This document shows positions 47,897 through 52,662 of a stretch of DNA of 64,000 nucleotides, piece by piece. The stretch spans positions 14,191 through 78,190 of the forward strand of contig JBKCUA010000002.1 in NCBI GenBank assembly GCA_046318675.1. The letters run 5' to 3'. Position numbers and translations under genes: made by a program. The stretch's first letter is position 1, and each line of letters begins with the position of its first letter. The notes below the pieces were generated by a model. The model was not told where the DNA came from, did not search any database, and saw only the letters and a program-made list of their open reading frames with translations. Origin of the DNA: Holosporales bacterium. Lineage in GTDB: Bacteria; Pseudomonadota; Alphaproteobacteria; JAJTHO01.

Positions 47897-49177
47897 TTAT
47901 CCCCCCATCGTATCCCCTGTCAAGACTGTTCCGATGATGAGCAATGCCGGGTTGCCCGGCGGCGTTTGTTCCAGCGCGGCAGCCAGATTCCCAAGACTGC
48001 ACCGCACGACCGTTTGCCCCGGCCAAGAGGCCTGCGCCACCACCGCCGCCGGGGTGTCGGGGGAGAGGCCATGCTTCAAAAGCCCTTGCGCCACCGCCGC
48101 CGCGCTTTGAATACCCATATAAATAACAAGCGTTTGCTGGCCGCTGGCTATGGCCGCCCAAGGCAGCACCAGCTCGCCATTGTCCCGGCGGTGGCCGGTT
48201 AGAAAAGTCACGGCCTGGGCGTGATCCCGGTGGCTTAAGGAGGTCTCCAGCGCCGCCGCCGCCGCGCTGGCCGAAGTCACGCCTGGCACGATGACAAACG
48301 GCACCCCGGCGGCTTTCAGGGCCGCCATTTCCTCCCCCGCCCGGCCAAACAGCAAGGGATCGCCGCCCTTGAGCCGCGCCACCCGCTTACCCGCCAGCGC
48401 GTGCTCCACCAGCGTCTGGTTAATCTCCCCCTGGGGCACGCAGTGGTGCGCCCGCGCCTTGCCCACATAGATTTTTTCCGCGTCCTTGCGGGCGAGGGTA
48501 AGAATTTCCGGCGTGACCAAGCGATCATACACCACCACATCGGCCGCCTGCAGAAGGCGCAACGCCCGAAAGGTCAGCAAATCCGGGTCACCCGGCCCCG
48601 CGCCGATGAGGGCGACGCTGCCCCGGCTCGCGGTTTTATCCGTAATGGCCTTTAGAAATGCCTGCTCCGCCTCAGCCTCTGACACCCCGGACACCGCCTC
48701 GGCAAAGCCGCCGTCGAGCAGGTCTTCCCAGAAATTTTTCCGCGTTTGCATGTCGGGAAACGCTCGGCGCAGGGTGTCCTTGAGCTTTTCCCCCAACGCC
48801 GCCACCCGGCCAATGCCCGACGGCAAGCTGGCGGCAATCTTGTTCTTCAGCCACCGCGCCAGCACCGGCGCCCGCCCCCCCGTGGACACGGCCACCTGCA
48901 CATCCCCGCGCTGAATCACCGCCGGAAAAATAAAATCGCACAGGTGCGGCCTGTCCACCACGTTGACCAGCAGCCCTGCACCCCGGCACGCTGCACCCGC
49001 CCGTGCATCCTCCTCCTCACTGCCCAGACTAATCACCGCCAGGCGAAAAGGTGTGAGATCGTTTGGCAGCGCTGCATGATGAAGGGGAGTAAGGTTCAAC
49101 GCCCGCAGCGTCTCCGCCTTGGGGTGAGACGCGGAGGGGGTGAGGAGGAGGACAGGGAGGGAAGCTAACTTAATCAT
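47897..49177 (-). CDS. cysG: uroporphyrinogen-III C-methyltransferase with N-terminal CysG-like (precorrin-2 dehydrogenase/ferrochelatase) domain lacking the GxGxxG NAD motif
   Basis: C-terminal SUMT motifs (VALIGAGPGDPDLLT, GGDPLLFGRAGEE, VPGVTSA). The N-terminal part aligns to the CysG N-domain (NVVD...AVSTGGRAPVLAR). The Rossmann loop reads LPVLLLTPSASH instead of LxVGGGxVA. Confidence 0.75.
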   Translation of the reverse strand: MIKLASLPVLLLTPSASHPKAETLRALNLTPLHHAALPNDLTPFRLAVISLGSEEEDARAGAACRGAGLLVNVVDRPHLCDFIFPAVIQRGDVQVAVSTGGRAPVLARWLKNKIAASLPSGIGRVAALGEKLKDTLRRAFPDMQTRKNFWEDLLDGGFAEAVSGVSEAEAEQAFLKAITDKTASRGSVALIGAGPGDPDLLTFRALRLLQAADVVVYDRLVTPEILTLARKDAEKIYVGKARAHHCVPQGEINQTLVEHALAGKRVARLKGGDPLLFGRAGEEMAALKAAGVPFVIVPGVTSASAAAAALETSLSHRDHAQAVTFLTGHRRDNGELVLPWAAIASGQQTLVIYMGIQSAAAVAQGLLKHGLSPDTPAAVVAQASWPGQTVVRCSLGNLAAALEQTPPGNPALLIIGTVLTGDTMGG

Positions 49178-52100: not shown

Positions 52101-52662
52101 CACTGCGTATTATGCTGTGGATATCATTAGGTTTTTGTTGTAATGATTCGCGCACGCACGTCACGGCTGCATCTGCTGCAACGGTTTTAGATTCTTTTTC
52201 TAGTTTGTATAGATCCTCCGTAGCTTTCATTGCTTCAAATATTAGGTTGCATTGGTGGGGAGGTAAGGTTTTTAGGATTTTTTGTGCATTCCGATGATCT
52301 TTTAATCGAGCATTACGAACATTTGGGAACTTTAAGAGTCCAGACCATTTATAATCTTCTAAAGGCTCTTTGCCAGCTTCCAAAAGATGAGTCATTTTTT
52401 TTCTATCTTCTTCATTGTTGCACAGATCAAGACTAGATTGTCGATAAAGTGCTTTATAATAACTATCTAAATGCCGCTTGATTGGCAATTTGAAGCTGTC
52501 TTCATCTTGTGCGGGCGGTATCGTCGTCCCCGCCGCTATGCTTGCACCAGATGTTATTGTCGAGACCATACACCCCACCGTTACCCTTATTTTTCCCAAT
52601 TGTAAACAAATTTCATTACAAAAAACTTCTTGTTTGCTTATGTTTTGTGCTGCGGTGCACAA
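49174..52662 (-). CDS. giant low-GC orphan protein (about 1131 aa from ATG 52569; 1162 aa from TTG 52662), no recognisable domain
   Basis: Single uninterrupted ORF with AT-rich codon usage. Stop TGA (49174-49176) overlaps the cysG ATG (49175-49177) as ATGA. No signal peptide, TM helices or known catalytic motif recognised. Confidence 0.6.
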   Translation of the reverse strand: MCTAAQNISKQEVFCNEICLQLGKIRVTVGCMVSTITSGASIAAGTTIPPAQDEDSFKLPIKRHLDSYYKALYRQSSLDLCNNEEDRKKMTHLLEAGKEPLEDYKWSGLLKFPNVRNARLKDHRNAQKILKTLPPHQCNLIFEAMKATEDLYKLEKESKTVAADAAVTCVRESLQQKPNDIHSIIRSATVKDKSEKIARPPGKFSKTFAWWGLMLNGGLLRLNLWVEWLTGFSPLIKFREFVRFLKLLNPSSHEHQADANANKGIAAINSVKHEKNRLATHLRENCLVHMNAEARELYIQMLDLSGMSDFSVQAFNLEYATYYDAEFNSYFEKMQPHGIGYEVTQLWNRYVAAKSSLLEKLTTEESGHRSAYVSYDIIGAFRIPAIADAVQSIYKEISIFAGNDPKASNLVNKLQRYMVGLKTNSGANASTVDLYSILIKVAFSGVALNTNYVPEQAVDYQQARKNAVLNGGDEGFVPLVRLADTFMLDKEQDEASRALKTHRVIMWRPLRVLLNYIQKFVPFLRFGASLEQHRYTEEAVLTTLYSELLRLNQLEPIALSPTNKNPEITEDYGNLLLNINRMLVGLSVSAYANCTDIPLMETIVERFNNKEIGLKLTNPAHFTDLLEQLAQQHMRRGREVGRLYNSLQTFPVLNVASINPLTDPVLKPQIQPVLAKESRTFTEIKKDLEKAAITGKDFETYMLEPDTLVLHQLAVACKKDPTLKANSLEELRNLLFGKNKNGSASSEDSPYAKIFHSQRCGFLQEPDLKVKNPSLAATGHNFTTQDGAMCCYRKITLPLIEKLQSYLKDICTEGVINENTIVPWFDKNNSPDPSLYKNMSSTGSAFGRLHGKEKVEQFSSYNGWMRAFFAEGGTGGVYWRTNSDENGNNESAIRYISGRHFDEAMKYFIEEKEKDLGYTIDHRPSAEQQGEIQAKVYKLLMADPCIGTHHLGTAQGIENTMRSLQKFNGAELADRYNLGKVTDAVGALAVRTEQSYPELQAIAKGLALRRKILKGNNLLPPPDRLTYQEQWGPIFGMFGWALDKILYIVFKAGLYTRMPRASSNREQAIISVLPSGLEAGTSLTTPPLASLMNIQRPDKAPLFIEEAYRKPDEQRFKIFNNQDKEQRGGGQYKAYIEANQESWAPGQNKTSELVNARNYYSR

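Follow-up and report, generated by a model that had tools for sequence, protein, structure and literature searches.

How does one gene come to differ at 65–80% of its encoded residues between genomes that are 98–99% identical, with the reading frame kept and species boundaries crossed? This question is raised by a giant open reading frame (ORF) on the minus strand of a 64,000-nucleotide stretch of DNA from Holosporales bacterium (NCBI GenBank assembly GCA_046318675.1, contig JBKCUA010000002.1, positions 14,191 to 78,190). The whole stretch is referred to below as the window, and positions are counted from its first letter. To our knowledge, few bacterial genes are so strongly polymorphic within a species. 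Where loci of this kind were studied in well-known organisms, they turned out to encode molecules recognized by hosts, phages or competitors. The giant ORF (49174..52569, minus strand) runs from an ATG to a TGA stop codon and encodes a protein of 1131 aa, predicted to be mostly alpha-helical and without a known domain. A reading of the sequence alone (the original prediction) had singled it out as the stand-out gene of the window, and it is indeed the most unusual one in otherwise housekeeping surroundings. On the evidence of aligned loci, the giant ORF is a single-gene replacement locus, at which at least six ancient allele classes (the window allele being class 1) are swapped as whole cassettes, also across species, presumably by homologous recombination.

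Allele replacement between conserved flanks

The window was compared by blastn with L090, an independent assembly of the same species. The two are 98.5% identical over 5.2 kb upstream of the ORF and 97.6–97.9% identical downstream of it, with the match stopping at position 52565 and resuming at 49161. The tract between these points (49162..52564), which begins 5 nt past the A of the ATG of the ORF and extends into the siroheme synthase gene cysG, has no nucleotide similarity to L090 and constitutes the replaced cassette. L090 carries a class 3 allele (P0017, 1272 aa as called), whose product is ∼27% identical to the window protein. Boundary alignments revealed conservation through the ATG and then again from the stop codon onward; in the window allele, the replaced tract reaches 16 nt into cysG, altering the first six CysG codons.

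The same pattern was observed in a second species (species A, represented by L082, L002, and L083). The flanks of these three loci are 98.2–99.1% identical at the DNA level on both sides, with no detectable DNA similarity inside the ORF, and the pairwise identities of the encoded proteins are 35%, 21%, and 21%. Different classes thus occur within one species, and one class (class 3) is found in two species. The class 3 alleles of L090 and L083 share 91.8% DNA identity over the 3.7-kb ORF, compared to 75–88% for rsmH, mraZ, and the cupredoxin and FTR1 genes of the same loci. The locus therefore has the marks of a replacement locus: a site occupied in all genomes, hyper-divergent alternatives, sharp borders, and atypical composition.

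In 13 of 13 related loci, a homologue of the giant ORF lies directly upstream of cysG on the same strand. The original prediction had raised the arrangement in which cysG is directly preceded by mraZ-side DNA elsewhere, but no such empty site, i.e., cysG without a homologue of the ORF upstream, exists among these 13 loci. A view of the compositionally foreign ORF as an insertion was likewise not borne out, since each relative found, in two lineages, has a collinear homologue at this position, and no mobile-element marks were found; the borders of the ORF carry no meaningful flanking repeats, tRNA or integrase. In lineage 1 (the window, L001, L002, L082–L084, and L090–L093) the gene order is murE-ftsI-ftsL-rsmH-mraZ, then divergently ORF-cysG-cupredoxin-FTR1. 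In lineage 2 (L085 and L087), whose CysG is 64% identical to that of the window, the order ORF-cysG is kept and the other neighbours are Flp pilins, a fatty-acid hydroxylase, and mfd.

The arrangement recalls the replacement islands that have reportedly been described in P. aeruginosa (the pyoverdine fpvA/pvd, pilA, flagellin-glycosylation, and O-antigen loci). As in these islands, one site is filled in every strain, the alternatives differ from one another much more than the genomes around them do, the GC content is lower, the borders within conserved flanks are sharp, types are shared across lineages by recombination, and the adjacent diversity is raised. Unlike the multigene biosynthetic or receptor clusters of P. 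aeruginosa, the locus studied here consists of a single 3.4-kb gene, its alternatives are collinear homologues over their whole length, and nothing known ties its product to the cell surface.

The reading frame, its start codon and composition

An uninterrupted minus-strand frame of ∼3.4 kb was found at 49174..52662, exactly as originally predicted. Its stop-free translation comprises 1162 aa when counted from the upstream TTG and 1131 aa from the ATG, in agreement with the predicted size of ∼1130–1160 aa. The frame is not a product of chance, because 1131 codons are open, while the longest stop-free run in 2000 shuffles of the ORF's own bases was 147 codons. The true start is likely the ATG at 52569 and not the TTG at 52662, because the break in DNA identity, a ribosome-binding signal, and the conservation of the codon itself all point to this position: identity with the same-species genome carrying a different allele spans 52570–52662 and ends 4 nt past the ATG, a Shine-Dalgarno (SD)-like GGTGGGG at 52573–52579 (minus strand) precedes the ATG, and the ATG is kept in all lineage-1 loci. 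The 93 nt between the two candidate start codons behave like conserved intergenic DNA.

The ORF has a GC content of 0.40 and a GC content at third codon positions (GC3) of 0.31, the lowest values among the window ORFs of at least 150 aa, which agrees with the AT-rich codon usage claimed for it. The contrast with its neighbours had been exaggerated, though. In 500-nt windows, the GC content is 0.39–0.40 within the ORF and 0.60–0.68 just beyond it, compared to 0.486 for the window as a whole; this step reflects the neighbours no less than the ORF, because cysG (0.65, GC3 0.76) and the FTR1 gene (0.60) are themselves high-GC outliers. Every allele nevertheless lies 7–13 GC points under the surroundings of its own locus.

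A small family of divergent allele classes

When 1.84 billion cluster representatives were searched exhaustively with HMMER, only four related clusters emerged: P0002 (1197 aa, 32% identical to the window protein), P0003 (class 3; 1248 aa, 28% identity in this search and 26.6% in the pairwise class comparison), P0004 (1228 aa, 26% identity), and P0005, which is a fragment and has its full-length form in P0018 (1197 aa). A word-indexed search of 5.8 billion proteins returned the query only, whether started with the window protein (NCBI MFN7901276.1) or with the family alignment, and no similarity of the ORF to phage and plasmid records was found. Strictly speaking, the gene is therefore not the orphan that it was designated as: its product belongs to no curated family, but is one of six divergent allele classes that together form a very small family.

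A search of species-representative genomes for the cysG neighbourhood identified one close relative, the metagenome-assembled genome (MAG) L002, labelled "Holosporales bacterium", with a CysG 92% identical to that of the window. In the equivalent slot, L002 has a low-GC ORF whose product aligns collinearly with the window protein across 1038 columns, at 21% identity. This class 4 allele contains three in-frame stops within ∼25 codons (L002 6686–7060), with the frame unchanged on either side. A JGI contig from another sample carries an identical L002-type allele in intact form (P0020, 1156 aa as called). The stops represent either a local double frameshift in the strain or an error in the MAG consensus.

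In total, at least six divergent allele classes of ∼1100–1250 aa were distinguished, each with an intact full-length representative; between classes, the proteins are 20–35% identical. Each class recurs nearly unchanged across independent NCBI, JGI, ENA, and Logan assemblies (99–100% for class 2, 92–99.5% for class 3), from which we conclude that the classes are stable types and not the result of hypermutation or assembly noise. An exact 27-nt intergenic pattern gave no match in the metagenome_contigs collection, although it is present in JGI contigs; this collection evidently lacks the samples concerned. All organism-labelled members of the family come from MAGs named "Holosporales bacterium". 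As far as the databases searched are concerned, members of the family occur only in a small clade of uncultured alphaproteobacteria carrying the NCBI label Holosporales.

Selection on the gene and diversity of its flanks

Synonymous divergence (dS) and the ratio of nonsynonymous to synonymous divergence (dN/dS) were estimated by the Nei-Gojobori method between L090 and L083, which belong to two species and both carry class 3. For the giant ORF, dS was 0.26 and dN/dS 0.16 (0.163 over 1243 codons). The corresponding values were 0.32 and 0.15 for cysG, 0.59 and 0.048 for mraZ, 0.88 and 0.084 for rsmH, 1.12 and 0.148 for the cupredoxin gene, and 1.81 and 0.088 for the FTR1 gene. Purifying selection within class 3 argues that the giant protein is translated and functional, and the comparative data as a whole show the ORF to be a functional gene, present in a single copy and belonging to a protein family that had not been described before. 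Because dS of the cassette and of cysG is lower than that of the flanks (0.59–1.81), both appear to have moved between the species after these had split.

Within species, the flanks diverge by 3–18% in the 300 nt adjoining the ORF and by 0–1% beyond ∼2 kb. The proportion of synonymous differences (pS) in cysG is 0.06–0.08, compared to at most 0.04 in the other flanking genes (L082/L091 and L093/L083); in absolute terms, cysG shows 20–28 synonymous differences within species, and most other flanking genes show 0–5 (ArgS, 8). The high pS of cysG holds even between carriers of the same class with no synonymous difference in the ORF. Breakpoints therefore seem to lie both between the ORF and cysG and beyond cysG, as cysG diverges where same-class ORFs are nearly identical. 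Such a flank pattern would be produced by recombination tracts ending in the arms, or by linked diversity around a long-maintained polymorphism.

We infer that balancing or frequency-dependent selection keeps the classes; the diversity peak beside the locus, the sharing of a class between species at low dS, and the stability of the classes across samples are indirect signs in favour of such selection.

Features of the giant protein

No match to the window protein was found in Pfam, NCBIfam, PADLOC or PHROGs, and six members of five classes, scanned one by one at E ≤ 10, gave no consistent library match. The family profile had no hit among PDB chains at E ≤ 10. A well-known conserved family, the detection of which would have contradicted the original prediction, thus did not emerge from the profile searches. 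HExxH, P-loop, Fic, MIX core, RGD, CaaX, and other motifs gave none common to the classes, and library and motif scans of the giant protein revealed no ATPase, nuclease, other catalytic, cofactor-binding or enzyme motif, nor did the library scan detect a beta-barrel or autotransporter domain. A crude hydropathy scan detected no segment of transmembrane grade (the maximum Kyte-Doolittle mean over 19 residues was 1.43) and no hydrophobic N-terminus. The lack of a recognizable domain, HExxH, Fic or P-loop motif, signal peptide, and transmembrane segment, stated from inspection alone, was in this way confirmed by library, motif, and hydropathy scans. Self-BLAST, the check for internal repeats, found none.

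The structure and fold search proposed alongside was less informative. AlphaFold2 produced mostly helical models, both from the single sequence (predicted local distance difference test score, pLDDT, 35.7) and from a 5-sequence alignment (pLDDT 41.6, predicted template modelling score 0.28), and both are too poor to use; a Foldseek search of the PDB with the second model gave nothing at E ≤ 0.001, the best hit (E = 0.17, TM-score below 0.1) being noise.

A seven-sequence alignment of the family contains 40 invariant residues. Conservation in no block of 7–10 columns is high enough for a protein search pattern. The classes diverge evenly over the length of the protein (17–33% identity per 60 columns), and no mosaic blocks between classes were found. 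Two moderately hydrophobic, Trp/Gly-rich helices (residues ∼177–205 and ∼1000–1020) are position-conserved in all classes. At the C-terminus, a short end motif, NN[VI][VI]HF[LM][KR], is conserved across classes after a gap-rich variable tail, and is a candidate lead for a C-terminal export signal of type IV or type I secretion systems.

Linkage to cysG and the surrounding genes

Directly downstream of the giant ORF lies cysG (47897..49177, minus strand; siroheme synthase, 426 aa; NCBIfam equivalog NF007922, 490 bits), followed on the same strand by the cupredoxin gene (47522..47854) and the gene of an FTR1-type iron permease (46644..47486). These genes, together with the divergent upstream order mraZ-rsmH-ftsL-ftsI-murE, are as described in the original prediction. 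The predicted overlap of the ORF stop codon with the cysG start is also real: the TGA (49174–49176) and the ATG (49175–49177) share the tetranucleotide ATGA, from A49177 to A49174. It is peculiar to the window allele; in other alleles 6–12 nt separate the stop from the cysG ATG, and one locus has a gap of 18 or 168 nt, according to which cysG start is taken. In most loci cysG begins 0–12 nt past the stop of the ORF, and it has no SD sequence of its own. CysG is therefore probably made by ribosomes that have just completed the giant ORF, i.e., by translational coupling to the end of this gene. Co-transcription of ORF, cysG, cupredoxin, and FTR1 genes is plausible from their arrangement.

The CysG of this clade matches its family model only from position ∼61 (window, L085 4001–5317, and L087 5324–6652). 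The Rossmann motif reads VLLLTPSAS instead of the canonical CLVVGGGEVA, ∼20 residues are missing, and the GxGxxG segment is lost in both lineages. The NAD-dependent dehydrogenase/chelatase half of the enzyme may thus be inactive and the methyltransferase half intact. Outside the clade, the CysG proteins closest to it are from Gammaproteobacteria (44–50% identity). This, together with the 60–65% GC content of cysG-cupredoxin-FTR1 in a window of 48.6% GC, suggests an old horizontal origin. In lineage 2 (L085 5369–6054 and L087 6708–7146), cysG is followed not by cupredoxin and FTR1 genes but by two or three tandem ORFs of 56–59 aa, one of which shows a weak Flp/Fap pilin match. The ORF upstream in lineage 2 (L087 1–1623) was considered as a member of the giant family and rejected (hhalign probability 0.2).

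The rest of the window contains core housekeeping genes, i.e., secY, adk, sucD, ahcY, rpoN, bamD, mrdA, rodA, thrS, glmU, trmD, dnaJ, argS, and those encoding NAD-GDH, YhdP, and AsmA. No Rfam family was found anywhere in the window. A second low-GC orphan was observed on the plus strand (45369..46634; 421 aa, GC 0.43), without a match in Pfam, NCBIfam, PADLOC or PDB. It is located in a ∼1.4-kb segment (45236–46653) between the FTR1 gene and a glycosyltransferase gene. The segment is missing from L090 of the same species and from L002 and L082 of the sister species, and is therefore a strain-specific insertion, on the opposite strand.

The mraZ-side intergenic region

The region between the giant ORF and mraZ (52570..52862) is conserved across alleles and species and represents the putative upstream recombination arm. 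In a four-locus alignment it is near-invariant up to the ATG of the ORF, and it is 85.7% identical between species. mraZ itself (52863..53318, plus strand; 151 aa; PF02381) starts with the ATG at 52863 (MGLFLSTITNKIDKKGR...) and is the first gene of the divergent dcw cluster. A consensus scan of the region revealed no canonical sigma-70 site; a TACAAT hexamer at 52599–52604 (minus strand) is −10-like, and might have a promoter role.

Four TGGG boxes with exact 10-bp phasing (TGGGCATTCGTGGGATACCATGGGCAAATTTGGG) are present at 52722..52755 on the minus strand, the pattern having one match in the window and none expected from 100 shuffles. They are oriented with the giant ORF and inverted relative to mraZ, 108–141 nt upstream of the mraZ ATG, and are invariant in nine of nine lineage-1 loci and absent from the lineage-2 loci, which lack an adjacent mraZ. 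The MraZ repeats of E. coli are reportedly of the form TGGGN-N5, which the boxes resemble. By this analogy, the dcw promoter probably has its MraZ operator in these boxes. Control by MraZ was dropped as a conserved property of the giant ORF, because the boxes go with mraZ, although it may hold in lineage 1. The plus strand contains, downstream of the boxes and ∼50 nt before the mraZ start codon (52786–52813), a GC-rich hairpin of 9 bp with a TTTTTT run after it. The structure is terminator-like on the mraZ strand, conserved between species, and without an Rfam match. It could be a dcw leader attenuator, or a short antisense or divergent RNA could end there.

Possible role of the giant gene

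The original prediction had guessed at a secreted effector, a toxin or a defence protein. The allele pattern fits a protein of antagonistic interactions, and the gene is probably conflict-related. The reading that we favour starts from the exchange of whole-gene cassettes by homologous recombination, for which the mraZ-side intergenic region and cysG would serve as arms. Negative frequency-dependent selection would keep the classes in the population, with ordinary purifying selection acting within each class. Since balancing selection on classes implies recognition, the product would be "seen" by an antagonist, and it would most likely be a non-classically exported host-interaction protein (an effector or compatibility determinant), whose variants would evade or match variable host targets. 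Holosporales are obligate associates of eukaryotes, mostly protists, and a type VI secretion system is conserved in nearly all of their sequenced genomes (PMC11909080). This protist association, the lack of a Sec signal or membrane anchor, and the variable tail with its conserved C-terminal motif point, weakly, to a non-Sec-exported protein that faces a host or an enemy. The nature of the antagonist is the weakest step of this reading; for the reading as a whole, from replacement and balanced classes to a likely host-interaction protein, we consider the chances of being right and wrong to be about equal.

Several observations weigh against it. Secretion-system genes are missing from the 64-kb window, which is core housekeeping DNA; vgrG, hcp, PAAR or adaptor genes are found neither there nor in the related loci, and the protein has no MIX, FIX, PAAR or Rhs marker. 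No effector marker motif, including the MIX core, was detected in the giant protein, and the C-terminus of the window allele fits the conserved end motif only loosely. Host association of these MAGs is assumed from their taxonomic label, and a GC content of 48–55% together with the presence of AcrB, a large NAD-GDH, a PAS kinase, and sigma-54 suggests a less reduced lifestyle than that of classical Holosporales. The strict linkage of the ORF to cysG in both lineages could point to a cysG-tied function instead. It should be noted that polymorphism within classes (3 synonymous and 6 nonsynonymous differences in one comparison, 0 and 6 in another) is too scarce to interpret.

Known systems provide partial parallels. 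The giant protein resembles effectors of intracellular bacteria (Legionella Dot/Icm, Rickettsiales, and the CifB type of Wolbachia) in that these have ∼1000 or more residues, are helical and lineage-restricted, lack a Sec signal, and show lower GC content; cif genes also form deep types at ∼30% identity, and the organisms carrying such effectors are, as the Holosporales label implies here, described as obligate associates of eukaryotes. Unlike these effector genes, the giant ORF has no linked secretion system, chaperone or prophage, encodes no eukaryote-like domain, and lies within a housekeeping operon beside the dcw cluster; its export is putative, and the protein has no sequence similarity to any translocated-effector family. 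With polymorphic toxins (CdiA-CT, Rhs, and MafB) it shares large size, extreme intraspecific variation, and recombination of variants. In these toxins, however, the N-terminal delivery region is conserved, variation is limited to the C-terminal toxin, and the cognate immunity gene always comes next, while the giant protein diverges uniformly and is directly followed by cysG.

The linkage just mentioned could mean that the protein is a lineage-specific partner of the unusual CysG in siroheme or iron metabolism, encoded in one operon, and that its divergence reflects weak constraint on a large helical scaffold. Adjacency to cysG is the sole linkage kept in both lineages, the close spacing and lack of an SD sequence tie cysG to the ORF in most loci, the N-terminal GxGxxG lost from CysG leaves a function that another protein might supply or replace, and in lineage 1 a cupredoxin and an iron permease follow. 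Weak constraint, however, leaves unexplained the discrete classes in 98–99% identical genomes, the dN/dS of 0.16 within a class, and the cross-species class with dS below that of the flanks; a metabolic partner should moreover have changed in step with CysG, which shows 92% identity between species, and no cofactor-binding or enzyme motif was found. We therefore consider such a partnership unlikely. A single-gene anti-phage defence protein, or a polymorphic toxin or bacteriocin, diversified through conflict with phages or competitors, would account for the low GC content, size, few homologues, and allelic turnover at a fixed site, which are common for defence hotspots and toxin loci; the original prediction had reasoned along these lines. 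This is quite improbable given that PADLOC and PHROGs gave no match, no ATPase, nuclease or other catalytic motif was detected, the alternative versions are homologous and collinear, not systems of unrelated origin, divergence is not focused in a C-terminal toxin module, no small immunity-type ORF separates the giant ORF from cysG, and the surroundings are core housekeeping DNA and not a defence island.

A cell-surface or envelope protein that is attacked by phages or predators or exposed to host recognition, and that diversifies in the manner of flagellins, pilins, and major surface antigens, would produce a similar population pattern, and the two position-conserved Trp/Gly-rich helices could be accommodated in such a protein. 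Classical antigens, however, vary in a central domain between conserved termini, whereas the giant protein varies over its whole length, has neither a signal-peptide-like N-terminus nor a transmembrane-grade segment, beta-barrel or autotransporter domain, and is predicted, in low-confidence models, to be almost wholly helical; a surface role thus seems doubtful at best. The view of the ORF as a recently acquired AT-rich island, or as a decaying pseudogene still open by chance, could draw on the lowered GC content in every locus and on the L002 copy with its three stops. It is now barely credible and largely refuted by the occupation of the same slot in every relative found, the lack of mobile-element marks, frames open over 1100–1250 codons in six classes, purifying selection within class 3, and the intact L002-type allele (P0020).

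Implications

New here is a hypervariable replacement locus, probably a balanced one, built from a protein family without known relatives. The gene might encode a new kind of compatibility or "identity" determinant of protist-associated bacteria, a giant and fully polymorphic protein whose ancient cross-species classes decide which host genotypes, co-infecting strains or phages are tolerated, which we regard as rather unlikely. If so, its logic would be like that of cif types or mating-type idiomorphs, and hard-wiring to the translation of cysG would prevent loss of the gene. The family also marks a gap in protein-fold coverage, with no sequence library match and AlphaFold2 models that are too poor. 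The six classes, enclosed between conserved arms, can be amplified or read-mapped, and are a possible strain-typing marker for metagenomic time series. For a lineage without genetics, the giant gene is a concrete candidate for a host-interaction molecule.

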